Source of the DNA: Spartobacteria bacterium
Lineage (GTDB): Bacteria > Verrucomicrobiota > Verrucomicrobiia > Chthoniobacterales > UBA6821
Length of the DNA stretch: 64,000 nt
Reading direction: 5' to 3'
Assembly: GCA_947482345.1 (NCBI GenBank)
Contig: CANKJN010000005.1
Coordinates: 102 to 64,101, forward strand
Numbering within the stretch: the first letter of the stretch is position 1; the number at the start of each line of letters is the position of its first letter. The translations under genes were made by a program, and so were the position numbers. The notes beneath the pieces were generated by a model, which made no database searches, was not told where the DNA came from, and saw only the letters and a program-made list of their open reading frames with translations. Positions 16,162 to 46,312 of the stretch are shown here, in pieces.

Positions 16162-16169
16162 AATAGACC

Positions 16170-16480
16170 TTCGACTTTGGTCTCTCGTCCCTTGACCTCC
16201 TGAGATTGCTGATTTTTTACCCCTCGACTATCGACCTTCGTCCTTCGACTCACATGATTGCTGATTGCTCCCCGCAGATCCCCCTTCTGAATCAACAATT
16301 ACCAATGATGAATTAGCAATTTCACCCACCTTCGCACTTAGCCACCTTTAGCCTTTCCACTTTTTACTTCCCCCTGATCTCCGACCTCTGACCTCCGACC
16401 TCCGACCTTCGACAACGGAGATTGCTGATTGTAGATTGCTGATTTTTTATCTCTCGACTATCGACCTTCGTCCTTCGCCT
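16170..16480. repeat. Mosaic heptamer-rich intergenic repeat block
   Basis: CCGACCT x4, GATTGCT repeats, and two copies of TTTTTA(C/T)C(C/T)CTCGACTATCGACCTTCGTCCTTCG. Confidence 0.8.
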
Positions 16481-16531
16481 TAAGCGCTACCTCCTGGCTA
16501 CCAACTCCTACGCCGACGGCACCCTCTTTCC

Positions 16532-18088
16532 GTGAGTAATCTCAATACCCAGCGACTCGGCCTTTTTCTTGTGATGGGGCTGGGCATACTTTTTGCGCTC
16601 TTTGCAGGGAATTACGTGGCCGAAGAGGATTACACTCCCATTGCCATCGTGTTCGGAGGACTAGTGGCTATCACTCTGGTCTTCAGTGTCGGTACCAATG
16701 CCTATCTGCTTATACCGATGTGCTGGCCCTTGATAGGCACTATTCATCTTCTGCCGCTGCCGTTTAATGTGCGACAGATCGCCATGATCTTTGCCAGTCT
16801 CATCTTTGTTTCCGGCGTCATTTTCAAGAGGGCTGGGGGTAAAAAAGTCCCGTTTGATATCCTCGATCTCTGGGTTTGGATCAATGTGGGATACTTAGTG
16901 ACAGTCTTTTTTAGAAACCCTGTCGGGATCAATGCCTTGGGGGGGGATCGTGTCGGAGGGAGGCCATACGTTGATGTCGCACTTGGATTCATGGCCTATC
17001 TAATCCTGAGGCGGGAGACCATTTCCCCAAAGATGGCACGGCTGATTCCTTTAGTTTGGCTATCGGGCGAGATTATTAATGGAATGGGTGGACTAGTCGG
17101 TCTTTACTTTCCTTCCATTGGTTCACAAATAGGAATGCTTTACAGCAGCTTCCTTCCAGGCTTTGGTAAAGAGCAGGTGGGGGCCATTGTCGGAGAAGAT
17201 CGTTTAGTTTCGTTGCAAGGGGCAGGTGCAACTTTGGCTCTGTACATTATCTGCAGTGTAAATCCGACGCATCTGATCCGCCCTCAAAACATGGTGAAGT
17301 TGTTTGGATATTTGCTAGGAGTCCTTCTCGTCATGCTTAGCGGGTTCAGAAATGCGCTCTTTAACGTTTTTCTCATGACGGCCTTTGGTGCCATGATGGG
17401 AGATCGCTTTATCGGTATCCTTAAGGTTATTGTAATTGTATTTTTGGGGGCATTAGCAGGTGTTCTATTCAGTTACAGCAGCATCAATCTTCCATGGACC
17501 TTCCAGCGCACCCTCTCATTTCTGCCTGGCAACTGGGATCCGACGGCCGTTGAGGCGGCAAAGGGCAGTTCAGAATGGCGCTATGAGATGTGGAGGTCAG
17601 CGCTGAGTACCGACAGATATATCCACAACAAGCTCTTGGGCGATGGGTTCGGAATGTCCCGTCAGGACTATGAGCGCGTTCTGGACGCCAGTCTTGGTGG
17701 AGTCGGCTTCATCGGTGAGAGTGCTACACAGGAGCAATTCATGGTCAGCGGCCAGTTTCATAGCGGCCCGGTCTCTTCAATACGATTTGTAGGCTATGTT
17801 GGATTAGCGCTTTTTCTCATCCTCTTATTCATGTTGGCACAGACTGCATACCGCATGACTCTGAAATCTCGCGAAACTCCTTATCTTTTTATATCAATGT
17901 TTATAGGTATTCCTGTAATTATTTATCCTATCTTTTTCCTATTTGTCTTTGGTGCCTATGAGCATGATATCATCAATATGTTATTTTTTGTAGGAATGAT
18001 CAAAATGATCAATGCCTCACTGAGGAAATATCATGAAGATTCGGAAAAAAGTAACATGATCCCTCCAGCACCAAGTCTCTCGCTCTAA
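16532..18088 (+). CDS. Wzy/O-antigen ligase-like polysaccharide polymerase
   Basis: Polytopic membrane protein with SGFRN, a periplasmic loop (SSEWRYEMW...LLGDGFG) and FHSG...GYVG. GTG start. Confidence 0.75.
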   Translation: MSNLNTQRLGLFLVMGLGILFALFAGNYVAEEDYTPIAIVFGGLVAITLVFSVGTNAYLLIPMCWPLIGTIHLLPLPFNVRQIAMIFASLIFVSGVIFKRAGGKKVPFDILDLWVWINVGYLVTVFFRNPVGINALGGDRVGGRPYVDVALGFMAYLILRRETISPKMARLIPLVWLSGEIINGMGGLVGLYFPSIGSQIGMLYSSFLPGFGKEQVGAIVGEDRLVSLQGAGATLALYIICSVNPTHLIRPQNMVKLFGYLLGVLLVMLSGFRNALFNVFLMTAFGAMMGDRFIGILKVIVIVFLGALAGVLFSYSSINLPWTFQRTLSFLPGNWDPTAVEAAKGSSEWRYEMWRSALSTDRYIHNKLLGDGFGMSRQDYERVLDASLGGVGFIGESATQEQFMVSGQFHSGPVSSIRFVGYVGLALFLILLFMLAQTAYRMTLKSRETPYLFISMFIGIPVIIYPIFFLFVFGAYEHDIINMLFFVGMIKMINASLRKYHEDSEKSNMIPPAPSLSL

Positions 18089-19587: not shown

Positions 19588-19638
19588 ACAAATCAATACG
19601 GCTAGAACCAAGCACTTTTTTAACAACATAATTAAAAC

Positions 19639-20820
19639 GTGGCCAAGACAATCTCTAAACCAAAATTGCTCTATGTGGTCGATCCACCATTATCAGTTCC
19701 TGGCGGAATCAGCGTTTTGGCCCAAGTTTTTATTGAAGAGTTCGCAAATGATTATCAGATATATATACTATCAAGCGATCCTCCAGATTTCTTGAGGACC
19801 CATAAAATCGGGATTTTAATTGCTGATCATATTGAATGGAAACCTGCATCAGCCTCTCCAAGCTTCAGATATTTTAATTATGTGAAAGAAATCGCTTTGG
19901 AGGCTTTTAAGCTTGGAATTGACTTGGCTCATTTCCAAACAAATCTCTACAACTTCGGGAATCGATTCTTGGGAATGTCCCTTTCCCGCCAACTTCGCAA
20001 AAGAGGAATTCCTAGCATTTGGACAAATCATGCCATTGTTTCTCCGCTTGATGGATACGGCGGATTCACTCAATCACAGCTTGAAAAATGCTTGTTATTT
20101 CCTGTAGCATGGGTTGGGAAGTTCAACCAATTACAAAATACCGTGTATGAGATCCAAGTCTCAGAATTCAACCTGCGCACAATGCGCCGTGTCTGGTTTC
20201 CTTTCCGAGAGAAATTTCTTAAGATCTACCATTCAAAGATTAATTCAGCTGATGCGAACTACCTTCCTAGAAAACACACAATCTTAAATGTGGGCTACAT
20301 TTCATTCATCAAACGTCAAGACCTACTTGTTAAAGCATTTCTTAAGATTGCTGCAAGCTTCCCAAGTTGGGAATTACACTTGGCGGGACACGATACCAAT
20401 GACGGATGCCGATCGGAGATTTTAAAGTTAATTGAAAAATCCCCTTTGAAGGAAAAGATCCACTTCCTAGGTTCAGTATCTGACCCAGGTCCTGCCATGA
20501 AATCTTGTGGCATCTACGCCCATTGTTCAGACTTTGAAAGCCTAGGCCTTGCGCTCCAAGAAGCCATGTCTTATGGCTGCCCAATCGTGGCATCTAATAT
20601 TCCAGCCAATCGTGAGTTGCTCGCCCTACCAGACAGCGGACTACTATTTGAACATGGCAATGAGGATGATCTGGCGGTGCAATTAGAAACACTGATTGCT
20701 AGCACCGATCTAAGACTAAATATTGGACGCCAAGCGAGAAAACGATTTTTAGAATCGGGTATGAACCGTTCAACAATGCTTGATAAATACAAGTCTTTAT
20801 ATCAAAACATTCTAAACTAA
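19639..20820 (+). CDS. GT4 glycosyltransferase
   Basis: KRQDLLVKAF, FESLGLALQEAMSYGCPIVASNI. Confidence 0.88.
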   Translation: MAKTISKPKLLYVVDPPLSVPGGISVLAQVFIEEFANDYQIYILSSDPPDFLRTHKIGILIADHIEWKPASASPSFRYFNYVKEIALEAFKLGIDLAHFQTNLYNFGNRFLGMSLSRQLRKRGIPSIWTNHAIVSPLDGYGGFTQSQLEKCLLFPVAWVGKFNQLQNTVYEIQVSEFNLRTMRRVWFPFREKFLKIYHSKINSADANYLPRKHTILNVGYISFIKRQDLLVKAFLKIAASFPSWELHLAGHDTNDGCRSEILKLIEKSPLKEKIHFLGSVSDPGPAMKSCGIYAHCSDFESLGLALQEAMSYGCPIVASNIPANRELLALPDSGLLFEHGNEDDLAVQLETLIASTDLRLNIGRQARKRFLESGMNRSTMLDKYKSLYQNILN

Positions 20821-20841
20821 TACAAGTACAAATCTAACACC

Positions 20842-24435: not shown

Positions 24436-24446
24436 CGTAGAGGATA

Positions 24447-25622
24447 ATGAAAATTATTAGTGCCATCCCGATCTCGTACTCAAGCAGAGGATCATTTTGG
24501 GAAAGAGACCTCGGTCTCGTGACACTGGGTCTAAGGTCATGCGGTGCAGATGCGTGGTTTACCTCGCTACCGGGCGACGATGTTCCTTATGGGATGCCTT
24601 ACATTCCCGCCACACGAAAAAATCTATCGGATCCCAGTTGGTGGAGGGAACAGCGACCTGATGCCATCATTCTGAACACATGGTCGGCTCCTAGGCATGA
24701 TGACATCAGGAAAGCCGCCCTCTCCTTAGGGTGTCCGCTAATTGAGAAGCTTGACACGGACGGAGTTAAATCTCCGCGTATTTATCCCTGGCACAGTCTC
24801 CGTAGAACATGGGTGAACTATGACCTGCGGCATCCAGTCTCAAGCGGCATTCCACGCAAGGCAGAGGCGATCATGAGATTTCTGACCACATACCTTTTTC
24901 CCTCGCTACTCGACAAGAAGATGGTGAGATGTATGGAGCGTGTCCCTGTTTATGCCGCCGAAACCCCGGTTGCATCTGCCCGGGTCAGAAGGTTCTTGCG
25001 AATGTATAATGCTAACCCGATGCCGCGCGTGTTCACGGTTCCCCATCCGGTCAATACCGCACAGATGGGTTTTTCGCCAGCCGACTCAAAACGGAATCAG
25101 GTTATAGCCATAGGTCGTTGGGATGACGCCGTCAAGGGATGGCCTCTCTTAAAAGTAGTAGCGGAACGGTTTCTGCAAAACTGCACTGAATGGAGCCTTG
25201 TTGTGGCCGGAATAGGGGCTGAAACAGAGGGGAAAAAGATGGAGGAGAGATTTCCTGGGCGCTTCTCGATGATCGGCAGGGTAGGGCACGAGGAACTCAA
25301 CAAGTTGCTTAGATCTTCTAAGATCTACATGCTAACATCTCATTCCGAGACATTCAATATAGCAGGGGCAGAAGCACTCTGTTGCGGTTGTTCTATCGTT
25401 GGCCCCGCTCAGATACCCAGCAGCGCGTACTTCGCTGGGAAAAATTCAGGAACTGTTTCGTACCTGCGCAACGCTTCGCACATGAGCGATGCCTTAATGG
25501 CGGAAGTGGATGAATGGAATAATCAACGACGTGATCCGGAAAGCATATCGACGCAGTGGATTGCAGAATTGGGTGCTGAAGCCGTCGCAAAAAGGTATCT
25601 TGAGATCTTTTCAAAGATGTGA
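24447..25622 (+). CDS. GT4 glycosyltransferase
   Basis: IGRWDDAVKG, SHSETFNIAGAEALCCG. Confidence 0.8.
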   Translation: MKIISAIPISYSSRGSFWERDLGLVTLGLRSCGADAWFTSLPGDDVPYGMPYIPATRKNLSDPSWWREQRPDAIILNTWSAPRHDDIRKAALSLGCPLIEKLDTDGVKSPRIYPWHSLRRTWVNYDLRHPVSSGIPRKAEAIMRFLTTYLFPSLLDKKMVRCMERVPVYAAETPVASARVRRFLRMYNANPMPRVFTVPHPVNTAQMGFSPADSKRNQVIAIGRWDDAVKGWPLLKVVAERFLQNCTEWSLVVAGIGAETEGKKMEERFPGRFSMIGRVGHEELNKLLRSSKIYMLTSHSETFNIAGAEALCCGCSIVGPAQIPSSAYFAGKNSGTVSYLRNASHMSDALMAEVDEWNNQRRDPESISTQWIAELGAEAVAKRYLEIFSKM

Positions 25623-26860
25623 AAATAGCCTTTCTGGTTCCCGACAACCGGGAAAACTTTCGCAGGTATGAGCTGGCTGATCCTTATTTCGGAACGGCCC
25701 CCGCAGCCTTGCTTGATGGCTTTGCAAGTTTGGCGAACCAAGCTGATGCACCCGAGATCCATGTGATTTCCTGCGCCCAAAAAAGGATTCCCGCCCCCAA
25801 AAAGCTCGCGTCCAACATCTGGTTTCACTCGCTCCATGTTCCTAAGGCGGGATGGCTGAGATCGGGTTATCTGGGATGTGCATTCGCCGTGAGAAAAAAA
25901 CTTCGGGAGATTCATCCCGACTTAGTTCATGCTCAGGGAACCGAACGGGACTGCGCGATCAGTGCGATCCTATCGCCTTATCCAAAGATACTCACGATTC
26001 ACGGAAACCTGAGACTCATCAAAAAGCAGGTGGGATTCCGGCCGTTTTCAGCAATGTGGTTGCAGTCGTATCTAGAGGGATTTTCAGTTCCCCGATTCGA
26101 CGGGGTCATCTGCATCACCAACTACACCAAGAATGCCATAGAACATGAGGTTCCAAAAACATGGGTGGTGCCCAATGCCGTCGATCCATCGTTTCTCGCT
26201 CTAGGTGAGAAAAGAATGCGAAGGCATGAAGTAAAAAGTTCTGAAATAAATGACTCAGGTTTCAGGTCTCAGGTTTCAGGTTTAGAATCTCCCCCCGTCA
26301 TCCTCTGCGTCGCTAATGTGGATCACAGGAAGAATCAAAATGCTTTCATCAAAGCCTTGGATCCTTTGGCTCAATCCATGAGTTTTGAGGTTCGTTTTTT
26401 CGGTTCCTGTCCAGACGATGAATACGGTCGGGAATTCCAAAGGATGGTTTCCGAGCGCCCATGGTGCCATTATGGTGGGATGATTGGTAGAGGGGAGCTC
26501 AAGCAGGAGATGGGGGGCGCAAGCCTACTGATGCTTCCCACCCTGGAGGACAATTGTCCCATGGTTGTGTTGGAGGCGATGGCTGCAGGTGTACCCGTGA
26601 TCGCCTCTAAGGTGGGTGGGATTCCTGACCTGATTGAAGATGGAATTAGCGGCCTTCTGTGCACCCCCGCTCGCCCCAAGGAATTCGCGGCCGCTTTGGC
26701 GAGGATACTAGATGACCCCCGTTATCGAAAAGAGATGGCGGGGCGTGCGGCGCACGAGGCCACAGTGAAATTCCACCCCTTATTGATTGCAAAAAAGCAT
26801 ATGGAAATCTACTCCGAGATCGCAGGATATGTTTCACCTGCTAAGGTTGACGCCTGTTGA
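25619..26860 (+). CDS. GT4 glycosyltransferase with a repeat-derived insert
   Basis: RKNQ, EDNCPMVVLEAMAAGVPVIASKVGGIPDLI. Insert GFRSQVSGL is encoded by CAGGT(T/C)T heptamers. Confidence 0.9.
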   Translation: MKIAFLVPDNRENFRRYELADPYFGTAPAALLDGFASLANQADAPEIHVISCAQKRIPAPKKLASNIWFHSLHVPKAGWLRSGYLGCAFAVRKKLREIHPDLVHAQGTERDCAISAILSPYPKILTIHGNLRLIKKQVGFRPFSAMWLQSYLEGFSVPRFDGVICITNYTKNAIEHEVPKTWVVPNAVDPSFLALGEKRMRRHEVKSSEINDSGFRSQVSGLESPPVILCVANVDHRKNQNAFIKALDPLAQSMSFEVRFFGSCPDDEYGREFQRMVSERPWCHYGGMIGRGELKQEMGGASLLMLPTLEDNCPMVVLEAMAAGVPVIASKVGGIPDLIEDGISGLLCTPARPKEFAAALARILDDPRYRKEMAGRAAHEATVKFHPLLIAKKHMEIYSEIAGYVSPAKVDAC

Positions 26861-34616: not shown

Positions 34617-34820
34617 GGAGGTAAGGGATCCTTGAACGCTGAAGTCTCCCCCATTATTCCCCGTGTTCAAGCAAGAATGAAGGGAGGAGTGAGGGGGCAA
34701 ATGAAAAATGAAAAATGGAAAATGAAAAAGGGGTGAGGCAAGTAAAGGCAAAAGGCGTAGGATGCGGAGGGGAACAACCTGAAACTTGAAAAGCTGATGA
34801 CTGAAGGGGCGTAGGGCGTT

Positions 34821-34866
34821 GGTCAGGACATAGGTAACACATGTGGTTCAGGACATGGGTAACACA
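34821..34866 (+). mobile_element. Orphan IS481-type end
   Basis: GGTCAGGACATAGGTAACACA-TGT-GGTTCAGGACATGGGTAACACA, the same tandem unit as 679-724. No transposase follows. Confidence 0.65.
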
Positions 34867-34937
34867 TGCCGTGAGTGATTGGTGATGTTGTGGACGGCGT
34901 TTATTGACTTGAACCATAAATATGGGAATATGGAGGA

Positions 34938-35189
34938 ATGAAGACCACTCTGGAGTTGCCGGATAATCTGTTACGGAAGGTGAAATCAACCGTTGCATCC
35001 TCAGGGAAGACGATGAAAGCCTTTATGATCGATGCCATTCAGGATAAGCTGGCGGCTCAGGAAGCGGCCGCATCCAAGCCCTGGCTGATGCACTTTGGGG
35101 CACTGCGTCATCTTGGTGGAGAGCGGCAGGCGATTGAGGCCAGGATCCGAGAGGAATTTGACGTCGTGGATTCCAACCAGTGGAAGTAA
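34938..35189 (+). CDS. VapB-like ribbon-helix-helix antitoxin
   Basis: MKTTLELPDNLLRKVK; overlaps the PIN toxin start. Confidence 0.8.
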   Translation: MKTTLELPDNLLRKVKSTVASSGKTMKAFMIDAIQDKLAAQEAAASKPWLMHFGALRHLGGERQAIEARIREEFDVVDSNQWK

Positions 35190-35566
35190 TACTCGATACG
35201 AACGCTCTCTCGGCGTTGCTCGACGGAGATGAGGATCTTCGTGTCATTCTAAGCAAGGTCTCGCAGGTTCTGCTTTCCCCGATTGTTCTTGGTGAATACC
35301 GCTTCGGGATCCTTGCATCAAGGCACCGACAGGAGTACGAGAAGGAACTGAGGCTTCTGGAGAAATGTCTTCATGTCCTGATTTTGGATGCCAGAACCGC
35401 GGTCGAATATGCGGCGGTGAGGAATGAGTTGAAGTCAGCCGGGACCCCAATTCCATGGCACGATATCTGGATTGCCGCGCAGGCTAGGCAGCACGATGTC
35501 AGGATTTTATCCAAGGGTAGCCATTTTGATGTCGTTGATGGTGTGAAAAGAGTGAGTTGGGGATGA
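35180..35566 (+). CDS. vapC: VapC PIN-domain toxin
   Basis: ILDTNALS, IVLGEYRFG, GTPIPWHDIWIAA, HFDVV. Confidence 0.9.
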   Translation: MEVILDTNALSALLDGDEDLRVILSKVSQVLLSPIVLGEYRFGILASRHRQEYEKELRLLEKCLHVLILDARTAVEYAAVRNELKSAGTPIPWHDIWIAAQARQHDVRILSKGSHFDVVDGVKRVSWG

Positions 35567-35804
35567 GGATTAAGGATTAAGAATGGAGGATGGAGGATGG
35601 AGGACAAAGTCGACAGACGAGAACCAATCCGCTGGGAATCGGCGCGGTGGATCCCGCTTTAGCGGGACCCGTAAGGGTGTCACCGCTTTGCGGGAGCAAA
35701 GTGACATCAATCGACAGTCGAGTGCCGAGGGAGAGCGGAAGGAGGTCAGAGGTCAGGGGTCAGAAGCCTCATTCAGCAGTCAGAACCAAGCCTGTGATCA
35801 CAGG

Positions 35805-35857
35805 CGCGGTAGACTACGACGCAGTCGTAGCCCCAACGGGGCGCCGCGGCTTCCGGG
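35805..35857. repeat. REP-like repeat family B; copies at 44290-44342 (inverted) and 48758-48810 (diverged)
   Basis: GCGGTAGACTACGACGCAGTCGTAGCCCCAACGGGGCGCC, containing two hairpins. Confidence 0.8.
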
Positions 35858-35953
35858 GGGAAGTGGCGTCAAATCAACAATCAGCAGTCAGCAGTCAGCA
35901 GTCAGCAGTCGCTGATATTGTCAATTGAGCGGCGATGTCATAAATTTGAGGTG

Positions 35954-36184
35954 ATGGAAAGTGTTGTCCAAGTTGAAAAAGCTCCCGAGCGCGTGCCGGT
36001 TTCCCCCGAGGTGGCAGAGCGTGCGGCGGATCTTGTGCGCCGTTTTTCTGAGTGTTTTTGGTTCCGTCACCCGAAGGCGGCGATTCGCTTCACCGACGAT
36101 GTGAGGTTGGTGATAGAGCACCTGCGTGACTACGGTGACAAGAGGGCGTGGGCCGCCGCAGCAGAGTTGCAGCGCTGTCTGTAA
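35954..36184 (+). CDS. Small hypothetical protein, putative partner of the downstream nucleotidyltransferase
   Basis: 76-aa ORF (ECFWF...EHLRDYG...ELQRCL) 11 bp upstream of the NTase-like gene. Confidence 0.6.
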   Translation: MESVVQVEKAPERVPVSPEVAERAADLVRRFSECFWFRHPKAAIRFTDDVRLVIEHLRDYGDKRAWAAAAELQRCL

Positions 36185-36195
36185 CTTCCAAAGGA

Positions 36196-37035
36196 ATGCC
36201 GCTAACGCCTTTTCAAAAAGAGGTTCTGAAGGTTCTGGTCTCCAATCGTTCGGAGCAGAGTCATGTGGCCGGAGGATTGGTGCTGAATGCGCCGGAGAAT
36301 TCGTCACGTTATTCGCGTGATTTTGATTTCTTTCACGAGGCGGTGGAGGATTTGGTCATCGCAAGCGAGCAGGATGTCCTCTCGCTTGAGAAAGCGGGTT
36401 TTCTTGTGCAAAAGGTCGAGCGTGACGGCGAGTGGTCGAAGCTGGTTTCCTTTAGGAAGGCCTATGTCATCGAGAATGGTGAGAGGGTTGAGTTGGACTG
36501 GGCTCATGATTCAGCGTTCCGGTTTTTCCCGATCGTTCCCGACGAGTTATTGGGTTGGAGGCTGCATCTCTTTGATATGGCGACGAACAAGGCGCTTGCG
36601 TTGTCCGCCCGTATGGAGACGCGTGATTATGTGGATATGGTTGAGCTTTCACGGCGTTTTCCCCTTGAGGCCATCATCTGGGCGGCTTGCGGCAAGGATC
36701 CGGGATTCAATCCCCTGTCTCTGTTCAGGATGATGATGAGGTTTGCCCGGATCGACCCAGCAAAACTTGAGGAGATTCAGGCACGCAGACTGGATCCAGT
36801 CGCCCTGAAGGAGGAGTGGATCATGGTTTCCGACAAGGCCCGGGAGGAAATAACGCTTTTAGCGGATGAGCGTCCGGAGATTCCGATCGGGGTGGCCTTC
36901 GTGGATGAGCAAGGGAATCCCGGATGGATCCGCTCGAACCCTTCCCTAAAGATTCACCATCCTTCTCTTAGAGGATGCTGGCCATCGTGGTCAGGAGTGA
37001 ACTCCTTCAGGAGGCCACCAACCGGTGATGGTTGA
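36196..37035 (+). CDS. AbiEii/AbiGii-like nucleotidyltransferase-fold protein
   Basis: HVAGGLVL...RYSRDFDFF (GG...S.D.D), NKALAL...RDYVD. Confidence 0.72.
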   Translation: MPLTPFQKEVLKVLVSNRSEQSHVAGGLVLNAPENSSRYSRDFDFFHEAVEDLVIASEQDVLSLEKAGFLVQKVERDGEWSKLVSFRKAYVIENGERVELDWAHDSAFRFFPIVPDELLGWRLHLFDMATNKALALSARMETRDYVDMVELSRRFPLEAIIWAACGKDPGFNPLSLFRMMMRFARIDPAKLEEIQARRLDPVALKEEWIMVSDKAREEITLLADERPEIPIGVAFVDEQGNPGWIRSNPSLKIHHPSLRGCWPSWSGVNSFRRPPTGDG

Positions 37036-37221
37036 TTCAGAGGGGCCAGGGGCGTCTCATGGATTCGAATTTTGTAAAAAGACGATATAAATAAAGCGAT
37101 GTTCTCGCGCCTCCTCGGCTTTTACGGTAGAAAAGTCTTTGGCAAAGCCGTTTGTCCGTATTCTGTTTGAAGCTGGAATAATCGGAAGTCTTCCTCGATC
37201 TGTCTTCTGGTCCCGAAACCC

Positions 37222-40143
37222 ATGACCATCTCCATCATCACTCCAAGTTACGGCCAGCTCGACTGGCTGAAGCTGTGTGTTGCTTCAGTGGCTGATCAGA
37301 ATCAGCCACTGAAGCAAGGGAGCTGGGAGCTGGAAGCTGGAAGTTTGGGGGGAGATGCACCTGCGGGGCAGGGGGTGCGAGTGGCTGAGTCAAAGGTGGG
37401 TAAAATTGCTAATTCATCATTGGAAATTGTTGATTTAGAAGAGGGATCCGCAGGGAACCCTCAGCAATCAGTAATTAGAAATCAGGAATCACCAATCGCC
37501 TCCCCGCTTCGCGTGGAGCACATCATCCAGGATGGGGGGACTCCGGGGATCGAGGAATTCGCCAGGGAGTTGGGTGAGGATCTCAAGTCGCGGTATGGTG
37601 GAGATTTTGTTTCAGACCTTCAAACCTTCGAACTTTTGCACCTTCGCACTGCGTCCGGTTACACGCTCCGCGTGTTCAAGGAACCGGACGCCGGCATGTA
37701 CGATGCGATCAACAAGGGGATCGCCAAAATGAGTGGCGATCTCTGGGCATGGATCAACAGCGACGAGCAGTATCTTCCCGGGACGCTGGCCTATGTGGTG
37801 CGGTGGTTTGAAGGACGCCGCGATGCCGACATTCTCTGCGGCGATGCCCTGCTCACGGATGACTCCGGCAAAGCACTCTCCTACCGCAGGATTGTGACTC
37901 CGTGGTGGAATCATACACGGTTGGTGCATCTTTCCTCACTGAGTTGCGCGAGTTTTTACCGGCGTTCCATCGTGGAGAGGGGAGGTGTTTTTGACACGGT
38001 TTGGCGCTCCATCGGGGATGCCGAGTGGATGGCCCGGATGATGAAAGACGGTGTCCGGATCGAGGCTTGCGGGAAGCTCTTCTCGACTTTCGCCTTCACG
38101 GGTCAGAACACGAGCGAGTCTCCGCTTGCCAGGAAAGAATCCGACGAATGGAAGAAGGCGGCTGACGCCCCCTCCGCATGGATGATGCTGCCGGTGATCG
38201 GAGTGCATCGTTGCCGGAAATTTCTCGCAGGCGCCTATCGTCGCCGCGATGTGAGTTATGCGATCCACCGTCAGGGCGAAGGGCGGAAGGAATTTCGTGC
38301 CGAGGGGATCGGTTGGGACTGGCCCTCCGCCCTATCCTCGATCCAGTCGGCTGTTTCCAAGATGGTTCCCAACCCTCATGTGCCTTATGTCGACTCTACG
38401 AGAGTCTTAGGCACATCCCTCATGGAGACAACCTATGAGGGTCTCTCCACGGTTCTCCTGGATGCGGGATCAAGTGGTGGGGGAGTGCTCGCCGTTGATT
38501 TTGCGAACACCCATGTCGTGACCATGCGGCGTCATGATCCCAAGTTCATGAATCTCACGGCGTGCATCGACCTGATCGCTCCGGATGGGATGCCCTTGGT
38601 GTGGGCAATGAATGCCAAGGGTGCGAATCTTGAGGATCGGGTTTACGGGCCGACCTTCACGCGGCGTTTCCTTGCATCATGTCCCGCGGATAAAACCCAC
38701 TACCTGGTGGGAGGCTCGGAGGAGTGCGGTCGCAAATTCCGGGAGCAGATGCTGGCGTTGAACCCTTCGCTGAATTTCGTGGGCGGGTATCATGGTCGCT
38801 GTTCCGGTGATGGTGAATTGGACGATCAGAAGAAGGTGAAGGCCGAGATTCTCGAAAAACGCCCCGATTTCATCTGGGTGGGCTTGGGGACACCCAAGCA
38901 GTATGCATGGATCCATCGGATCAAGCTGCAGCTCGATCACGGGGTGCTGTTGGCGGTCGGCTTTGCCTTTGATGTGAATGCGGGGATGAAACCCGATGCT
39001 CCCGCATGGATGCAGCGGCTTGGTCTCACCTGGATCCACAGGATGGCCTCCGAGCCGGGGCGGCTGGCAGGACGGTATCTGAAATGGAATACGCTCTTTA
39101 TCAGCTATTGGATTGCCGAATTCGTCGGCGGAGGGGTTCGCTCGGTGAAACTTCATCTCCGCAACGCATTCCTGCGCTTCGTGGATCTCCTTTCGCGGGA
39201 GATCTTCGATCTGGAGGATGGTCGCCCTCTGGGCCGTGCCCTCCTATTCGGACAGGGTGGTGGAGTCCGCGTCATCGGGCATGAGGGGCTGCCACCGCTC
39301 ATTCCCAGATTCATCCCTCAGGAGCGCCTGACCTACTGGAAGCAGTCGATCGGTTTCACGACCCCTCCTAGGCCGGACTTTCCAAGGCTCGAGGGGGTGT
39401 CCGCCGCCCCTGTACCCTCATCACCCCGCGTGCTGAATGTGGTGCTCACCCACTTGGACGGAGACCGGTTGGTCCGCACCAGGGAGCGCTGGAGGGATGT
39501 CTGCAGGGAAGAGGATCTCTGGATCGCCTTTGGTGGGAAACAACGGAACTTCCGCAATCTCGGGATGGAAAGATCCGTCTTCATCGGGGATGCGGGTCTG
39601 AGAAGGGAGGACAACCAGAGGGAGAAGCAATCTTACACCGGCATCTTTCACGCCATGGCACCCGTGGTCGAGAGGGAGAGGCCCGATTACATTTATCTCT
39701 GTGAGTATGATCATGTGTCCCTGCGCTCTGATCTGAATGCCCTTCAGGTGGCCGAGATCACCGCCGAGGGAGCCGATGTGATGGGGCACTGGCTCTACCG
39801 TGTGGACGGGACCAGCCACTACCACATGCTCTATCATCAATCCGATCCGGGCTTCCTGCGTTACTGGCAGTCCGTTTCACGCCGGGAGGAGAAGGGTGTC
39901 GTGCTCTCGATGTTCGGAAGCGGATCGCTCTGGTCGAGGGAGGCCTTTCTGGCCATCGCCTCAAGGACACAGCAGATCCCCTGTTATCTGGAGCTGTACC
40001 TCCCCACGCTGGCCCATCACCTCGGCTACCGGGTGAGATGCTGGGATGAGTCGCGCCACATGATCTCCAATCTACCCTCGAGGAAATGGACGATTGACGA
40101 GGCCATGAACAGGGATTGCCTGACCATTCATCCCGTGAAATGA
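37222..40143 (+). CDS. Multi-domain glycosyltransferase: GT2 + WecB/TagA/CpsF (GT26) + small unknown domain + putative GT-A-like domain
   Basis: SIITPSY, GMYDAINKG, WINSDE (GT2); PDGMPLVW, VGLGTPKQ, GFAFD (TagA); C-terminal LCEYDH...HPVK. One uninterrupted 973-aa ORF. Confidence 0.85.
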   Translation: MTISIITPSYGQLDWLKLCVASVADQNQPLKQGSWELEAGSLGGDAPAGQGVRVAESKVGKIANSSLEIVDLEEGSAGNPQQSVIRNQESPIASPLRVEHIIQDGGTPGIEEFARELGEDLKSRYGGDFVSDLQTFELLHLRTASGYTLRVFKEPDAGMYDAINKGIAKMSGDLWAWINSDEQYLPGTLAYVVRWFEGRRDADILCGDALLTDDSGKALSYRRIVTPWWNHTRLVHLSSLSCASFYRRSIVERGGVFDTVWRSIGDAEWMARMMKDGVRIEACGKLFSTFAFTGQNTSESPLARKESDEWKKAADAPSAWMMLPVIGVHRCRKFLAGAYRRRDVSYAIHRQGEGRKEFRAEGIGWDWPSALSSIQSAVSKMVPNPHVPYVDSTRVLGTSLMETTYEGLSTVLLDAGSSGGGVLAVDFANTHVVTMRRHDPKFMNLTACIDLIAPDGMPLVWAMNAKGANLEDRVYGPTFTRRFLASCPADKTHYLVGGSEECGRKFREQMLALNPSLNFVGGYHGRCSGDGELDDQKKVKAEILEKRPDFIWVGLGTPKQYAWIHRIKLQLDHGVLLAVGFAFDVNAGMKPDAPAWMQRLGLTWIHRMASEPGRLAGRYLKWNTLFISYWIAEFVGGGVRSVKLHLRNAFLRFVDLLSREIFDLEDGRPLGRALLFGQGGGVRVIGHEGLPPLIPRFIPQERLTYWKQSIGFTTPPRPDFPRLEGVSAAPVPSSPRVLNVVLTHLDGDRLVRTRERWRDVCREEDLWIAFGGKQRNFRNLGMERSVFIGDAGLRREDNQREKQSYTGIFHAMAPVVERERPDYIYLCEYDHVSLRSDLNALQVAEITAEGADVMGHWLYRVDGTSHYHMLYHQSDPGFLRYWQSVSRREEKGVVLSMFGSGSLWSREAFLAIASRTQQIPCYLELYLPTLAHHLGYRVRCWDESRHMISNLPSRKWTIDEAMNRDCLTIHPVK

Positions 40144-40219
40144 AAACTAGGGAACCTAGAGGGGCGAGAATCGGATTGATGATCTCCCTGCGGCGGGTGA
40201 GATTGGGCAATCGTACGAC

Positions 40220-40921: not shown

Positions 40922-40990
40922 GCGGTTCATGAAGAATTGTTGATTGTTAATTGTTAATTGCTTCCGCCCCCAACTGAAACCAACGGATTC

Positions 40991-41395
40991 ATGCCTAGCT
41001 ATCGATGGCCTGAGGAACTGCCCTGCTATCAGGAAGCGCGCAGATTTCGTATTGCGGTCGCTGACTTATGCATGCTGTTACCAAAAACAGAGGAATACCG
41101 TCTTAAAGATCAGATGCTTCGTGCAGCCCGCTCCGTGACGGCAAATATTGCCGAGGGTTTTGGGAGGCATCATCATCAGGAAAATATCCAATTTTGTCGG
41201 CAGGCGAGGGGATCGCTGATTGAAATGAGGGATCATCTCAATACTGCCGCAGATGAGGGTTTTGTGGAGAACGTGCAAGTTGGTGATGTTCTCAAGATGC
41301 TTGAATCATCCCTTGCATCCCTGAATGGATATCTTGTCTATCTCAAGAATTGCGCTTCTGATTCCAAACTCAAACAATCACCAATTAACAATTAA
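40991..41395 (+). CDS. Four-helix-bundle protein (23S rRNA IVP-like family)
   Basis: EEYRLKDQMLRAARSVTANIAEGFGR...ARGSLIE; flanked by AATTGTT/AACAATT heptamers. Confidence 0.9.
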   Translation: MPSYRWPEELPCYQEARRFRIAVADLCMLLPKTEEYRLKDQMLRAARSVTANIAEGFGRHHHQENIQFCRQARGSLIEMRDHLNTAADEGFVENVQVGDVLKMLESSLASLNGYLVYLKNCASDSKLKQSPINN

Positions 41396-41414
41396 CAATC
41401 TCCTCCTTTTGCCG

Positions 41415-42449
41415 ATGCCCTTTCCCAATCAGCAATCAGCAATCAGCAATCAAAAGTCGTTTGCGCCGACAATTCTTGCTGCGGGTGTCGTCTCCCTGTT
41501 GATCACCTCTCTCTTCCTGTCGGTCCAGTACAGCTACGGGATAGGAACGACCACGTACTCTCTGGCCCAGTATATCTGGCGGACTTGGAATGAGAGCGAG
41601 GACATGGGACACGGCATGATCGTCGTGCCGGCCGCCCTGTTCCTGATCTACCATGATCGGGAAAGGCTTCTTTCAATCACTCCCAAGCCGGGATGGGGAG
41701 GATTGGTGCTCCTGATCACAGGGTTGATGATCTACTGGTGCGGTCATTTGGCCGACGTCACCTTTGCAGGACTTTTCAGCCTGATCGTCATCCTGGCCGG
41801 AACCATCTGGTGGTTGCTCGGTTGGGAGTTCCTGAAGGCGCTTTCCTTTCCCATCGCCTTCCTGATTTTTGCGATCCCCTTTCCCGGCATCGACTCCATG
41901 GTGGCGCTTCCCCTGCGCTATCTGATGTCGAAGCTCGGGGTGGTGATCTTGAATCTCCTCGGAGTACCCGTGGTGCTGGTGGGTACGGGCATCCTCTCGG
42001 CTCCCGATGCGGCGCAGCACCTTGCAACGGGGCAGAAATTCGCCGTCGATGTGGCCAATCCGTGTAGCGGGATCCGTTCGCTCTTCGCTCTGATGATGGT
42101 GGGGGCGCTTTTCGCCCATTTCACGCTCAAGGGTGCCTGGAGGAAGTGGATTCTCTTTCTCTGCACGCCGCCGCTGGCCGTGCTCGGCAATCTGGTGCGA
42201 ATCCTGATGCTCACGCTCGGAACGGTTGCCTTCGGAAGCGAATTCGCGTTAGGGAAAAACCCTCTGGAGCATCCCTCCTGGTTCCACATGCTGGCCGGTT
42301 ATCTGGTCTTCATGGTGGCGCTTGCCGGAATGATGGGGGTTGCCTCCCTGCTCGGGCGTCTCCCCGGTGGTGTCCGAAGCAGCGCACCGTCGCCTGCGGC
42401 GCGGCCGAACCAAGGGGTTCCCGAATCGGATTCCGTCGATCGCTACTGA
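41415..42449 (+). CDS. Exosortase (EpsH family)
   Basis: HGMIVVP, VANPCSGIRSL (Cys), NLVRI (Arg), WFHMLAG (His). Start placed at ATG 41415. Confidence 0.9.
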   Translation: MPFPNQQSAISNQKSFAPTILAAGVVSLLITSLFLSVQYSYGIGTTTYSLAQYIWRTWNESEDMGHGMIVVPAALFLIYHDRERLLSITPKPGWGGLVLLITGLMIYWCGHLADVTFAGLFSLIVILAGTIWWLLGWEFLKALSFPIAFLIFAIPFPGIDSMVALPLRYLMSKLGVVILNLLGVPVVLVGTGILSAPDAAQHLATGQKFAVDVANPCSGIRSLFALMMVGALFAHFTLKGAWRKWILFLCTPPLAVLGNLVRILMLTLGTVAFGSEFALGKNPLEHPSWFHMLAGYLVFMVALAGMMGVASLLGRLPGGVRSSAPSPAARPNQGVPESDSVDRY

Positions 42450-42465
42450 TTGGTGTGATCCCTAA

Positions 42466-42844
42466 GGAAGCGCTGATTAAATCCCATGAAGGCCGCTGAA
42501 GAGCATTTGCTGATTTTTGAAGGCGCGAGTGCTGGGCGATACCCGCAGCGGTCTCGCCCGAGCGAGCAACGCCACAAAAATCGACAAATGGCTTCAGCCC
42601 TTCGGGTTGCGGAGATCCAAGCCAAAGGCCACAAAGCCTTTGGCTTCGTGCCGTGGCACGGGGGCCAACTGTGTTGGCTTGGCACTTTGCTTGCCCGGCC
42701 GTTGCTTCGCATCCGTTACGGCAGCCCGCAGAGGGGATGCTCGTGCCAAGCCGCCTTACCCACGGCCCATGGCTTGCCCGGTCGTTGCTTTGCATCCGCT
42801 ACGGCTTCCCGCAACGGCCTCTATGCGATTTAATCAGCGTTTCC
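42466..42844 (+). mobile_element. IS5-type MITE, copy 2 (379 bp)
   Basis: Same TIRs and arms as 3821-4094; CTAA duplicated at 42462-42465 and 42845-42848. Confidence 0.88.
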
Positions 42845-42872
42845 CTAAGTCCCTCCCTGATCCGCCTGCAAG

Positions 42873-44141
42873 ATGAATTCCCCCGCAGCGAGCCAGGAAA
42901 GGGAGCATCACAGACCCCGGATCCTGCAGATTTTCTCACGCTATCGGGAGTATGGCGGCGAGGAGGGGAGTGTCTACCGGATCGGTGATGCGCTGCATCG
43001 AGATTTCGACATCGGCTTCTTCCTGGCATCGAGCGGGGATGCCTTTTCCGGCGGGGTTCTCAAGAAGGGCCTCTCTACGATCAAGGCATTCTCCAATTGG
43101 ACCATCGTGGATCAGTTGCGCCGTTACCAGCAGCTCGGGCGGTATGATTGCTGGCTGATTCACAATGTCTTCCCGGTCATGTCTCCGGCTGTCTACGAGC
43201 TGGCCTTCACCTTGAGGATTCCGATCATTCATTATCTGCATAATTACCGGATGGGGTGCGTCAACGGTTTCTTTATGAATCATGGAGAGCCGTGCCAGCG
43301 GTGCATGCACGGGAGCTTCCTTCCCGCATTCCAGACCGCATGCTGGCATGGGAGTCACGTTCAGAGCGGCATCATGGGTGCCGTCACTAGCCGTGCACGG
43401 GGCATGGATCTCTTTCACCGGGTGCACCACTGGGTTGCGATCAGCAGTGCGCAGAAAAAAGAGCACGTGGAGATGGGGATCCCCGCTGACCGGATCTCCG
43501 TCATTCCTCATTTTTTTGAATCAAAGGGGGAGGCGCCCGATTATCCGGATCAGGGAGATGTGCTCTTTGTCGGAAGACTCTCCGCCGAGAAGGGAGTGGA
43601 TCGTCTTCTCATGGCATGGGAGGCCATTCAGGATTGCGGGAGAACCCTCTGGATCGTGGGTGACGGGCCCGAACGCAGTAAACTCGAGGAGATGGTACGA
43701 AGCAGAAGTCTCCGGAGTGTCCGCTTCACCGGCTTTCTGGAACGGGAGGCGATGGCATCAATCTGGGAAAAAGCGGCCTGTTCGATCGTCCCCTCGGTCT
43801 GGAAGGAGCCGTTCGGCATGGTGGTGCTGGAATCATGGGCCAAGGGGCGCCCCGTCATCGCCCACCGGATCGGTGCGCTCGAGGAGATTGTCTCCGATGG
43901 AACCGACGGCCTTCTCGTCCCCGTGGATGAACCCGGGGCATTGGCGGAAGCGATCCTCTCGATCCTTAATGACCCTGCTCGCGGGAAAGCCATGGGGCGT
44001 GCCGGAGCAGAGAAGCTTAGACACCAATATTCCAAGCAGGTTTGGCAGGATGCGATACAAGGGATTTTTGCGCACTTGCCATCACGCAATTCGTTCCATG
44101 AAAAGTCGAAGGTCGAAGGTCGAAAGACGAGTGTCGATTAG
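42873..44141 (+). CDS. GT4 glycosyltransferase
   Basis: GGEE, HNVFPVMSP, GRLSAEKG, EPFGMVVLESWAKGRPVI. Confidence 0.9.
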   Translation: MNSPAASQEREHHRPRILQIFSRYREYGGEEGSVYRIGDALHRDFDIGFFLASSGDAFSGGVLKKGLSTIKAFSNWTIVDQLRRYQQLGRYDCWLIHNVFPVMSPAVYELAFTLRIPIIHYLHNYRMGCVNGFFMNHGEPCQRCMHGSFLPAFQTACWHGSHVQSGIMGAVTSRARGMDLFHRVHHWVAISSAQKKEHVEMGIPADRISVIPHFFESKGEAPDYPDQGDVLFVGRLSAEKGVDRLLMAWEAIQDCGRTLWIVGDGPERSKLEEMVRSRSLRSVRFTGFLEREAMASIWEKAACSIVPSVWKEPFGMVVLESWAKGRPVIAHRIGALEEIVSDGTDGLLVPVDEPGALAEAILSILNDPARGKAMGRAGAEKLRHQYSKQVWQDAIQGIFAHLPSRNSFHEKSKVEGRKTSVD

Positions 44142-44396
44142 CAGTCGTGATTGCTGATTGTTGGTTGTTGGTTGTTGCTGACCATAGAGATTGTTGATTG
44201 TTAATTGCTGATTGCTGTTCCCTGTTCCCTGTTCCCACTTTCCGCTTTCAGGTTTCAGGTTTCATCCCTCATAATTGACACCACTTCCTCCCGGAAGCCG
44301 TGGCGCCCCGTTGGGGCTACGACTGCGTCGTAGTCTACCGCGTGCCATCCCAGGCGCTTGGTTCATCCTTCATAATTTCCTCGTCCTCCCCAACCC

Positions 44397-45119
44397 ATGA
44401 ATCGCCTCTCTAAGTATAAAATCGATCCGGTAGGCGAAGCCATGCTGCCGTTCGGTTATCTTCTGCTCGTCCTCACCCTCGACTTTATCACCCCCAAGGC
44501 GGTGCTCACACCCCTCTTTGGAATCGTGGGGTTGCTGGTCTTCGCTTACTGCCTGACACCTGGTTGGATGACATTTTGGTCATCGGTCTATGCCGTCGTG
44601 GTGACGGCGCTTTTTATCTCTCCGGGCATTTACATGTTCTTCCACAAAGAGGCTCCCCAGGCGGATTTCCTCACGCCCTATGCGAGAAGCGGCACATTCA
44701 TCGCCGGCGCCGCGCTCTCTGCATCCCTTTGTGCCGCGCTCTCGAGGGCACTGGCCATGAACGATGATTTCAGGGACATGCTCGAGAAGCTCACGCTCCC
44801 CGTGATCACCTCGAACCATGATGGTAGGATCATCTTTCTCAATCGCGCCGCCATGGATGCTCTGGGATGGGGGGGCGATCATAACTTGGCGATTTCCTAT
44901 TTCGACGCACTGGCACCGAAGGGAGTGCAGGGCGAGTTGATAGCGTCTTATCTGAGACGTTTTGACCAAGGGAATGCCGGGGAGATGCCCCCTCTCAATC
45001 TGGAGTGTCGCGGGCGGCGCTGTCTCGGATCCACGCGAATGATGGAATCTAAATCCCCCCGATTATTGCTGACCATGCTCGATTTTGAAAGCGCCACCGT
45101 ATCGGAAAAGAGAGCATGA
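44397..45119 (+). CDS. Membrane protein with a C-terminal PAS-like domain and no output domain
   Basis: Hydrophobic N-terminal half; PVITSNHDGRIIFLNRAA PAS motif. Confidence 0.65.
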   Translation: MNRLSKYKIDPVGEAMLPFGYLLLVLTLDFITPKAVLTPLFGIVGLLVFAYCLTPGWMTFWSSVYAVVVTALFISPGIYMFFHKEAPQADFLTPYARSGTFIAGAALSASLCAALSRALAMNDDFRDMLEKLTLPVITSNHDGRIIFLNRAAMDALGWGGDHNLAISYFDALAPKGVQGELIASYLRRFDQGNAGEMPPLNLECRGRRCLGSTRMMESKSPRLLLTMLDFESATVSEKRA

Positions 45120-46312
45120 ATGGTAAATCGCCCCGCCTGCTTCTTGTCGACGGGCACTACTATCTCTACCGATCCTTTTTCGCAATCCGGGGACTGACGA
45201 ATTCCAAGGGGGAGCCGACGAATGCAATCTACGGATTCGTGAAGGCCCTTCGGAGGATGCTGAAGGATCTCAGGCCAGATTATGCCGCGGTGATCTGGGA
45301 TGCCGGTCTGCCCGAGCGTAGGACGCAACTTCAACCCGACTACAAGCAGCACCGCGACGAGATGCCTGACGATCTGGAGGTCCAGCAGGAACCGATCCAA
45401 GAGATCGTCCCGCTTCTGGGGGTCGCCAGCGTTTTTCTCGAGAACCATGAGGCGGACGACCTGATCGCCTCCTATGTCGTGAAGGCCCGAAAGGAGGGCA
45501 TCGAGTGTGTGGTGGCGACCAATGACAAGGATATCCTCCAGATGGTCCGCGACGGGGTCTCCATCTACTCCACGGCCAAGGCGGACGTGGGGGAGGGGAA
45601 CGGGGGATTCAAACTTCTTGGGATTCCCGAGGTGACGGCGAAGTGGGGGGTCGAGCCCTCCCTCATCGCCGATGTCCTGGCCCTCACTGGAGACTCGGCC
45701 GACAATATTCCCGGAGTCCCGGGAGTGGGGGGCAAGACCGCCGCGAAGTGGATCAACCAGTACGGGTCGCTCGATGCCATCCTGGTGGGGTCGGGACTTG
45801 ATCCCAAGGTGCGTGAGAAAGTGGAGGCCTCCCGTGCTCAGATCGAGAGCAACCGGGCCATGGTGGCCTTGGATCTGGATCTGCCTCTGCCACTCCCGAT
45901 TCACGGGATGAAGGTATCGCCGCAATATCCGGAGCTGGTCGAGGCATTGAGGCGGTGTGAGTTTCGTTCGCTGACGGCCGAGGTGGAGAGGGAAGCTGCG
46001 GAGATGAAACCTGAAGTTGGAAACCTGAAACCTGAGTCGGCGGAGGGAGTGAAAAGTGAAAAGTCGGGAGAGCGACAGAAGTCGGAGGTCGGAGCTCAGG
46101 GGTCAGGAAGCACCAGCCAGAGTCCGAAAACAGAATACCCGGATGTGGCGGAGCGATTAAAAATTGCTGACTCTTCATTGCTGATCGAAGAAAGAAACGG
46201 CGGAGCGAGCGCGCCTGATGAGGGCGGGTGTCTCGAACCAGCAATGAGCAATAATCAATCAACAATTCCTGCCCCGAGGCCTTCCGCCGCCGAGCAGGGG
46301 GAGCTTTTCTGA
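45116..46312 (+). CDS. Stand-alone 5'-3' exonuclease / flap endonuclease with low-complexity tail
   Basis: LLVDGH, TNAIYGF, YKQHR, EADDLIAS, TNDKD, GDSADNIPGVPGVGGKTA. No polymerase domain; ends in QGELF. Confidence 0.9.
   Translation: MNGKSPRLLLVDGHYYLYRSFFAIRGLTNSKGEPTNAIYGFVKALRRMLKDLRPDYAAVIWDAGLPERRTQLQPDYKQHRDEMPDDLEVQQEPIQEIVPLLGVASVFLENHEADDLIASYVVKARKEGIECVVATNDKDILQMVRDGVSIYSTAKADVGEGNGGFKLLGIPEVTAKWGVEPSLIADVLALTGDSADNIPGVPGVGGKTAAKWINQYGSLDAILVGSGLDPKVREKVEASRAQIESNRAMVALDLDLPLPLPIHGMKVSPQYPELVEALRRCEFRSLTAEVEREAAEMKPEVGNLKPESAEGVKSEKSGERQKSEVGAQGSGSTSQSPKTEYPDVAERLKIADSSLLIEERNGGASAPDEGGCLEPAMSNNQSTIPAPRPSAAEQGELF

Follow-up and report, generated by a model that had tools for sequence, protein, structure and literature searches.

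The window analyzed here is a 64,000-nucleotide stretch of DNA from a Spartobacteria bacterium (contig CANKJN010000005.1 of assembly GCA_947482345.1, positions 102 to 64,101 of the forward strand). In and around its polysaccharide and exosortase locus, short composite repeats, in which tandem arrays of heptamers bracket small units named here cores A, B, and C, are found both in the spacers between genes and, in frame, within the genes themselves. We favor, with a probability of about 0.7, a reading in which this repeat DNA is non-coding in nature and, where a protein site is permissive, is carried along as a tolerated, translated passenger. A first-pass annotation of the same DNA had proposed that intergenic repeat sequence is recruited as in-frame protein insertions, in a manner analogous to the Rickettsia palindromic elements (RPEs) but from a different repeat family. 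As a whole, this interpretation is supported, although, as detailed below, the insertions do not correspond to a single event in a clean gene.

The most extensive case links a spacer with a gene encoding a family 2 glycosyltransferase (GT2):

16168..16480, + strand: intergenic composite repeat, with CGACCTY and GATTGCT arrays around core A (16255-16345)
37222..40143, + strand: host gene, encoding a 973-residue fusion of a GT2 domain, a WecG/TagA domain, and a C-terminal domain
37300..37512, + strand: GT2 insert, 71 codons (codons 27-97), in frame between the conserved SVADQ and VEHIIQDGG
37316-37347, 37381-37470, and 37461-37497, parts of the insert: a GGGAGCT array, core A in reverse orientation, and a CAGCAAT-type array, respectively

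The first-pass annotation had matched positions 16269-16346 with the reverse complement of 37381-37456 and had placed the latter in an insert of about 70 residues splitting the GT2 domain. Both observations hold, the insert counting 71 codons and the two repeat copies extending over 16255-16345 and 37381-37470. An inverted-repeat search returned arms of 78 nt (16255-16332 and 37393-37470) that are 88% complementary, and MAFFT and local alignments cover about 91 nt with one gap. The gapped local alignment of the pair reaches a score of 119, whereas none of 300 shuffles exceeded 26, and a 31-mer common to both copies, TCAACAATTNCCAATGATGAATTAGCAATTT, occurs exactly 2 times, with 0 occurrences expected from 100 shuffles. 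The order of modules (array, core A, array) is also common to the GT2 insert and to the spacer element, which bears, at either end, a direct repeat of 48 nt (16203-16250 and 16433-16480) and whose core A lies in a 370-nt spacer between the genes for a DUF4143 ATPase (14980-16161) and a Wzy-like protein (16532-18088). Core A has itself a period of 7: in the GT2 sense it reads ATTGCTA ATTCATC ATTGGAA ATTGTTG, a degenerate heptamer array, which is inverted relative to the CAGCAAT array that follows, so that the pair forms an imperfect hairpin.

Judging from the copies collected, core A appears to be mainly a non-coding spacer element. Five spacer copies were found: one in the window, two on locus L003, and two on locus L022, these last two loci coming from one related metagenome. 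On L003 and L022, the spacers that hold them adjoin accessory genes, which encode a DUF4143 ATPase, a HEPN/nucleotidyltransferase pair, and a protein homologous to that of the window open reading frame (ORF) 36148-37035. The spacer copies form a clade of their own, 94-98% identical to the window spacer copy and about 88% identical to the GT2 copies. They differ by insertions or deletions of 1-2 nt in a run of C, which break the frame, whereas all GT2 copies are equal in length; this restriction of frame keeping to the coding copies supports an RPE-like process acting on a different repeat family. A metagenome scan with a core A 18-mer returned 70 loci, with true copies only in L003 and L022, and the GTDB species genomes, scanned with a core A 20-mer, gave only one unrelated match in Nodularia. 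At the protein level, a phmmer search with the core peptide against 1.84 billion representative proteins retrieved only P0121, a GT2 fragment, and P0122, an unrelated tandem-repeat protein judged to be a chance match. A word-index protein search with the insert peptide found only P0121 and missed even P0001, which makes it uninformative on the spread of the insert. Among predicted proteins, core A was found in the GT2 family only; core C occurs in the gene of an MBOAT acyltransferase of locus L077 (see below).

Comparison with orthologs confirmed that the inserts are lineage-specific. The GT2 site varies in length, core A is restricted there to a subclade, and other alleles occupy the site elsewhere. 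Among 30 aligned GT2 homologs, almost all carry variable-length extra sequence between SVADQ and EHIIQDGG. In the window, the heptamers at this site are GGGAGCT and CAGCAAT; they are CAATCTC in L075, GAGTCGA, GAGCTGG, and CAATCTC in L076, and GGATAGA and CTYAATC in L077. In all, five heptamer types were counted among the GT2 orthologs, in genes with and without core A. Since almost every ortholog holds heptamer-coded sequence there, albeit a differing one, the site is a standing hot spot. Hence, in-frame repeats are indeed present, as the first-pass annotation claimed, but a single recruitment into a previously uninterrupted gene does not describe them. Core A is found in the GT2 genes of the window, L072, L073/L074, L078, and L079, and, at the protein level, in the close relatives P0001, P0005, P0008, and P0121. 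A degenerate core A is present in P0027, in L076 (with different flanks), and probably in P0024, and orthologs devoid of core A are about 25 codons shorter at the insert site. The 973-residue protein of the window corresponds to two genes in L073 (10001-12966) and in L077, one encoding a GT2-WecG protein of about 635 residues and the other a protein of about 335 residues. A second internal GT2 array is present in L073 (10390-10421, CTCGACC, encoding SRSSTLDPRL), exactly where the L073 allele departs from that of the window.

The structural prediction agrees with the location anticipated for such inserts. The 71 codons fall between helix 1 and strand 2 of a GT-A fold, which is supported by Foldseek matches to SpsA, WrtF, and TarS. 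In the AlphaFold model, the predicted local distance difference test score is below 50 for residues 38-91, which are without secondary structure, and above 90 for most of the domain, so that the insert is predicted to be a disordered loop on a confident GT-A fold. It has neither the splicing domain of an intein nor the RNA family of a known self-splicing intron: the 71 residues are of low complexity, without a Pfam domain or an Rfam family, and predicted to be unstructured.

Heptamer-coded peptides had also been noticed in the linker of a family 4 glycosyltransferase (GT4), at the N-terminus of the exosortase, at the C-terminus of another GT4, and in the tail of an exonuclease. All four proved to be genuine period-7 arrays, listed here together with the cassette that precedes the exosortase N-terminus:

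26216..26287, + strand: GT4 linker, the variable inter-domain linker of ORF 25619-26860, with its heptamer-coded part at 26252-26284
40935..41402, + strand: cassette with the gene of a four-helix-bundle protein (23S rRNA intervening sequence protein [IVP], PF05635; Avd-like) at 40991-41395 and inverted arrays at 40935-40963 and 41373-41402
41415..41458, + strand: rebuilt exosortase N-terminus, MPFPNQQSAISNQK, made from the CAATCAG array 41422-41458, in an ORF ending at 42449
44102..44141, + strand: GT4 C-terminal tail of ORF 42873-44141 (stop codon 44139-44141), reading into a GTCGAAG array
46004..46294, + strand: exonuclease linker, codons 297-393 (about 97 residues), hypervariable and heptamer-rich, with arrays at 46005-46115

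In the GT4 linker, 4.1 copies of TCAGGTT (26255-26283) encode DSGFRSQVSGL between two Pfam domains. The orthologs of this GT4 (ORF 25619-26860) were collected by database search, none being present in the fetched loci of relatives. Aligned over lengths of 383 to 520 residues, they display two variable sites, the second, near the N-terminus, accepting inserts that can reach about 80 residues, with NQQSAINN and GNLKPE among their sequences. P0124, although 90% identical, has SRPSTLDSRP in the linker instead, a peptide typical of a TCGACYC-type array, and its length is reduced by 9 residues, while the window allele is shared with more distant orthologs. At the other GT4, 2.9 copies of GTCGAAG (44105-44124) encode KSKVEGRK, 6 codons before the stop, with the last 12 or so codons lying in the array; orthologs of this protein end 9-15 residues earlier.

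The exosortase N-terminus appears to have been rebuilt around a cassette. In L072, L073, and L077, the epsI and exosortase genes abut or overlap, and the empty site is visible in L073 (13740-13770) and L077 (13700-13720). From this comparison, a cassette of about 480 bp (window region 40929-41414) was inserted after codon 3 of the ancestral exosortase gene, leaving ATGAAGAAT as the remnant of the old start, and the frame resumes at ATG 41415 with MPFPNQQSAISNQ. The 3.9 copies of CAATCAG (41426-41452) then encode NQQSAISNQ. This array is coding only if the start is ATG 41415 or 41325, and there is no later in-frame ATG before the conserved domain. The four-helix-bundle gene of the cassette is assigned to PF05635 with an E-value of 3e-27, and its flanking inverted arrays pair into a 19-bp stem in both the minimum free energy and the centroid structures predicted for this region. 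A second four-helix-bundle gene, in L076 (340-900), is flanked by inverted arrays of a different heptamer (GGTTCTT). The possibility that core A is an ORF-less derivative of this type of cassette was considered but is not supported: its right arm matches the window cassette at 24 of 30 positions (score 30, shuffle maximum 25), a match that is weak because both arrays are of the same heptamer type, and its left arm gave no significant match.

In the stand-alone 5'-3' exonuclease, the linker separates the FEN domains from a C-terminal QGELF (46295-46309) that is conserved in the window, L073, and L077, and that is similar to the beta-clamp-binding pentapeptides of the QL[SD]LF type. The linker of the L077 protein is 57 residues shorter and carries different arrays. 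Relative to L073, the proportion of synonymous differences (pS) is 0.12 in the tail and 0.13 in the domain, and the ratio of non-synonymous to synonymous differences (pN/pS) is 0.54 and 0.16, respectively. A third core A copy was suspected in this tail (KIADSSLLIEE), but the match is not significant, with 27 as the score of its best local alignment and up to 28 reached by shuffles, the order of modules alone being suggestive.

Arrays of this type are a conspicuous feature of the window. A stringent scan detected 12 arrays with a period of 7, one with a period of 6, and none with periods of 5 or 8-11, and the same scan of the shuffled window found no period-7 array; Tandem Repeats Finder (TRF) reports about 35 rows at period 7. 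Eight of the 12 stringent arrays fall outside curated genes, in a curated region (12090-51339) that is only 13% non-coding. In the loci of five relatives, 8 of 8 stringent arrays lie inside called genes. The array sequences are mainly GAGGTCG-like and AGCAATC-like. The units AGCAATC and TCAGGTT are open in all three phases, whereas their complements, GATTGCT and AACCTGA, contain TGA; genic AGCAATC and TCAGGTT arrays are read in the stop-free orientation. The genic sites are a linker, a loop, an N-terminus, and a C-terminus. Unrelated proteins share heptamer peptides: NQQSAI and GNLKPE recur, and GSWELEAGS in the GT2 has a partial match, SWELGA, in the MBOAT protein.

The composite repeats built on cores C and B occupy the following spacers:

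35780..35907, + strand: core C with flanking arrays, intergenic
44147..44342, no strand assigned: spacer arrays GATTGYT, CTGTTCC, and TTTCAGG, then reverse core C (44275-44342)
13855..14115, + strand: spacer arrays and the hairpin unit core B (13927-14000), upstream of a VapBC-like cassette

The two window copies of core C are inverted relative to each other and 96% alike. In L077, the MBOAT gene carries a core C copy (84% identical) with arrays, in frame, as an insert of about 80 residues. This insert is absent from the window MBOAT and from the second MBOAT of L077, and it is shorter and different in L073. Core B consists of two GC-rich hairpins, GGCACTTTGC...GCGGTGCC and GGGTCCCGC...GCGGGATC, and has no Rfam match. 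Further copies are located at about 35620-35710 (reversed), in L022 (401-480), and in L003 (about 2480-2600), always among heptamer arrays.

The homologs of the window proteins found by protein searches bear the names Verrucomicrobia/Verrucomicrobiota or Terrimicrobiaceae. The polysaccharide and exosortase locus occupies approximately 12 to 45 kb of the window, with the following content:

Locus genes: glf, Wzy-like, flippase-like, several GT4 and GT2 glycosyltransferases, MBOAT acyltransferase, EpsI, and exosortase
Accessory cassettes interrupting the locus: two VapBC-like pairs, the DUF4143 ATPase, an AbiE-like pair (weak Pfam match), and the four-helix-bundle (PF05635) gene

The backbone at 45125-50463 is 96-98% identical to L073 (16739-21920), whereas the polysaccharide locus upstream of 45125 is only 67-76% identical. 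The locus is therefore a recombination mosaic. The identity boundary coincides with the start of the exonuclease gene, which suggests, from the sequence comparison, a replacement of the locus by recombination. The divergent spacer between the MBOAT and GT2 genes is about 2.6 kb long in the window (34617-37221), where it holds a VapBC-like pair, the AbiE-like pair, arrays, and cores B and C, and is reduced to 118 nt in L077 (9883-10000); accessory cassettes and arrays therefore travel together. Other mobile DNA in the window includes a miniature inverted-repeat transposable element (MITE) and a gene fragment:

3813-4103, 42462-42852, 49823-50146, and 63927-64000: MITE of about 320 bp with terminal inverted repeats TAAGGAAGCGCTGATTAAATC, all copies in spacers
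198-647, - strand: ORF limited to the N-terminal helix-turn-helix and leucine zipper of an IS481-type transposase, a probable remnant

The empty site of the MITE copy 49823-50146 in L073 (GGGCTAA/AGGGG) implies a TAA target duplication.

The process that would account for these observations starts in the spacers. Lineage-specific composite repeats, consisting of tandem heptamer arrays that bracket short, unique, and partly palindromic units (cores A, B, and C), fill spacers of the polysaccharide locus, especially near accessory cassettes such as the toxin-antitoxin pairs, the DUF4143 ATPase, and the four-helix-bundle gene. Arrays would grow and shrink by slippage, and the units between them would be exchanged across sites by recombination. 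Occasionally, repeat DNA would land in a gene where it is tolerated, be it in a surface loop, in a linker between domains, or at a terminus. If orientation and phase offer no stop codon, the gene would survive and the repeat would be translated as a disordered peptide. The direction of transfer, from spacer to gene, the mode of spread, and the translation of the repeat segments are inferred, whereas the identity of the repeats, their in-frame location, their restriction to certain lineages, the keeping of the frame in coding copies alone, and the predicted disorder are what the analysis showed.

The way the GT2 insert evolves bears directly on this reading. In the four coding copies, variable sites at the three codon positions number 7/10/4 in the insert, 1/2/10 in the 26 upstream codons, and 9/15/31 downstream, and the pN/pS ratio amounts to 1.3-2.3 within the insert, compared with 0.3-0.4 in the flanks. 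Because of these high ratios and of the lack of codon-position bias, the insert peptide can be regarded as free of protein-level constraint. However, pS is only 0.02-0.06 in the insert against 0.53-0.74 in the flanking GT2 sequence, a roughly 10-fold lower silent divergence (Fisher p from 1e-13 to 1e-21), and between the window and L072 this holds also against the immediately adjacent 26 and 28 codons. Such a value is unexpected for a neutral passenger as old as the gene, and requires either that alleles have recently exchanged the insert or that its nucleotide sequence is constrained. Other points weigh against the passenger reading as well: the copying direction between the GT2 and spacer copies of core A cannot be rooted, no transposase or recombinase is linked to the repeat units, and a comparison of the insert boundaries in orthologs with and without core A showed neither a target-site duplication nor a sharp edge, the ends of the insert being heptamer arrays of variable length. 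Recent exchange among alleles seems the simplest reading of the low pS, and the mosaicism of the locus could explain it without any function. Nucleotide-level constraint is the alternative, and leads to an explanation that we consider unlikely, in which the insert is kept for a function of the DNA or RNA (as a stem for processing, an array that binds protein, or a site of recombination), or by biased gene conversion, the peptide being a by-product. It would accommodate the low pS, the even spread of substitutions over codon positions, the reshuffling of insert and flank haplotypes among five assemblies, the folding of the spacer element, which is better than that of shuffles (z = -3.8), and the 19-bp stem formed by the arrays around the four-helix-bundle gene. 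The GT2 insert itself, however, folds no better than shuffles (z = -1.1), and the consensus hairpin derived from nine aligned core A copies is weak (-4.6 kcal/mol), with compensatory changes at 2 of 17 predicted pairs, each in a single sequence. As the stem barely covaries and an Rfam search matched no family to the repeat units of the window, a conserved RNA structure for core A is not supported. Nor is a role of the repeat as promoter or terminator: nothing resembling either was detected in the GT2 insert, and the spacer element has two weak promoter-like matches.

A very unlikely explanation is that the insert is a selected protein module, for example a flexible tether or an interaction loop, from which the spacer copies would be derived. 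The GT2 frame is open over 38 codons in the window spacer copy too, the degenerate core A of the distant homologs P0024 and P0027 suggests a long residence in the gene, and the exonuclease tail, which links the enzyme to its conserved QGELF, is partly constrained. Yet the GT2 insert, for which disorder is predicted, has a pN/pS of at least 1 and no surplus of changes at third positions, many orthologs are either without core A or have unrelated heptamer peptides at the site, the core peptide was retrieved from the representative proteins only in a GT2 fragment, and the spacer copies constitute a separate, closely related clade with frame-breaking indels. Nothing in the analysis shows a gain of function from the inserts. 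It is more improbable still that the affected frames are non-functional, be it as pseudogenes, through wrongly called starts or stops, or through artefacts of assembly at repeats. In L079, the frame of the GT2 gene does continue across core A into core C and terminates at codon 112, the 1.3-kb contig ending shortly beyond; the exosortase start is uncertain; and the C-terminal cases need only a late stop codon. But the same in-frame insert is found in four independent assemblies (JGI, ENA), the 973-codon ORF is intact, and so is the exosortase domain (Pfam E-value 1e-51). In addition, the 26 codons upstream of the GT2 insert, which correspond to the first strand and first helix of the GT-A fold, are under purifying selection, which argues against a pseudogene or a downstream start.

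A further proposal, which we consider unlikely, is that Verrucomicrobiota possess a hitherto undescribed system of mobile cassettes whose working ends are the heptamer arrays. If so, inverted arrays would bracket either cargo genes (four-helix-bundle/Avd-like or toxin-antitoxin genes) or a short loop corresponding to the ORF-less cores, and existing arrays, including genic ones, would be preferred landing sites. Modules would spread among divergent alleles by conversion, explaining the 10-fold lower silent divergence, and genes bearing arrays would be permanent docking sites at which new protein segments are tried repeatedly. The low silent divergence of the GT2 insert and the array-bracketed cassettes are the observations most worth following.

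To our knowledge, spacer repeats that have become protein are described mostly from Rickettsia, an obligate intracellular parasite, and from a few single cases of heptamers. The present locus would extend this conversion to a free-living lineage, in which it appears routine, with at least 5 protein families affected in one 30-kb locus and its relatives. Since the same sites are re-used by different repeats across strains, the birth, exchange, and loss of segments can be traced allele by allele, providing a natural system for studying the origin of disordered loops and tails and the tendency of 7-nt repeats to spread. For annotation, such repeats would account for unusual inserts of low complexity, for starts that are hard to assign, and for long tails in Verrucomicrobial proteins.

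Several known systems resemble parts of what is seen here. Around the four-helix-bundle gene, the parallel is with 23S rRNA intervening sequences, in which an ORF for the IVP (PF05635) is associated with inverted repeats that form a long stem and the element is excised by RNase III. The window ORF is likewise enclosed by inverted repeats predicted to form a stem, but the cassette lies in an mRNA operon and not in rRNA, between epsI and the exosortase gene, within the original 5' end of the latter, and its stem consists of heptamer arrays. RPEs are short dispersed repeats present in spacers and, in frame, inside unrelated genes, where they add a peptide at sites compatible with the fold; they occupy dozens of genes and are not known to have a transposase of their own (Ogata et al. 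2000, as summarized in PMC10969869). Like RPEs, core A (5 copies in spacers, and copies in frame within the GT2 of 5 assemblies) and core C (2 window spacer copies and the in-frame copy of the L077 MBOAT) are found in spacers and in ORFs. They differ from RPEs in belonging to hosts of an unrelated phylum, the Verrucomicrobiota, and in being weakly palindromic units embedded in tandem heptamer arrays, with sequences that are probably unrelated to those of RPEs. Their host sites are hot spots that hold different repeats in each ortholog, and the core A peptide was found in the GT2 family only, instead of in dozens of genes.

Small non-autonomous repeats such as intragenic MITEs, the enterobacterial repetitive intergenic consensus (ERIC), and BOX also form in-frame fusions with a host ORF (PMC10969869). 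The present repeats can similarly be read through as part of the host ORF; unlike MITEs, no transposon-type terminal inverted repeats or target-site duplication were found for cores A-C. The TAACTGA-type heptamers of Beggiatoaceae, Cyanobacteria, and Bacteroidetes are tandem 7-nt repeats located mostly in intergenic regions (PMC4679880). Within ORFs, they occur only in the stop-free orientation, at protein ends or in variable surface loops, as in an RNA polymerase beta-prime-like ORF, with strain differences in 7-nt steps (PMC4679880). Like these and the cyanobacterial short tandemly repeated repetitive sequences (STRR), the arrays described here have a period of exactly 7 nt, are far more frequent than expected by chance, lie mostly in spacers in the window, and are free of stops in ORFs. 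Neither TAACTGA nor the STRR1-3 units are present in any window array reported by TRF, and many heptamer sequences coexist where the TAACTGA type has one favored unit. The hosts belong to a different phylum, the Verrucomicrobiota, and no preference for the position directly upstream of start codons was seen in the window. Moreover, the present arrays flank unique units, which are copied together with them, and also gene cassettes, around which they are inverted. In the literature searched, heptamer arrays were not reported from Verrucomicrobia. The present case is set apart by the occurrence in Verrucomicrobiota, the coexistence of heptamer types, the bracketing of units and cassettes by arrays, and the repeated use of the same protein sites.

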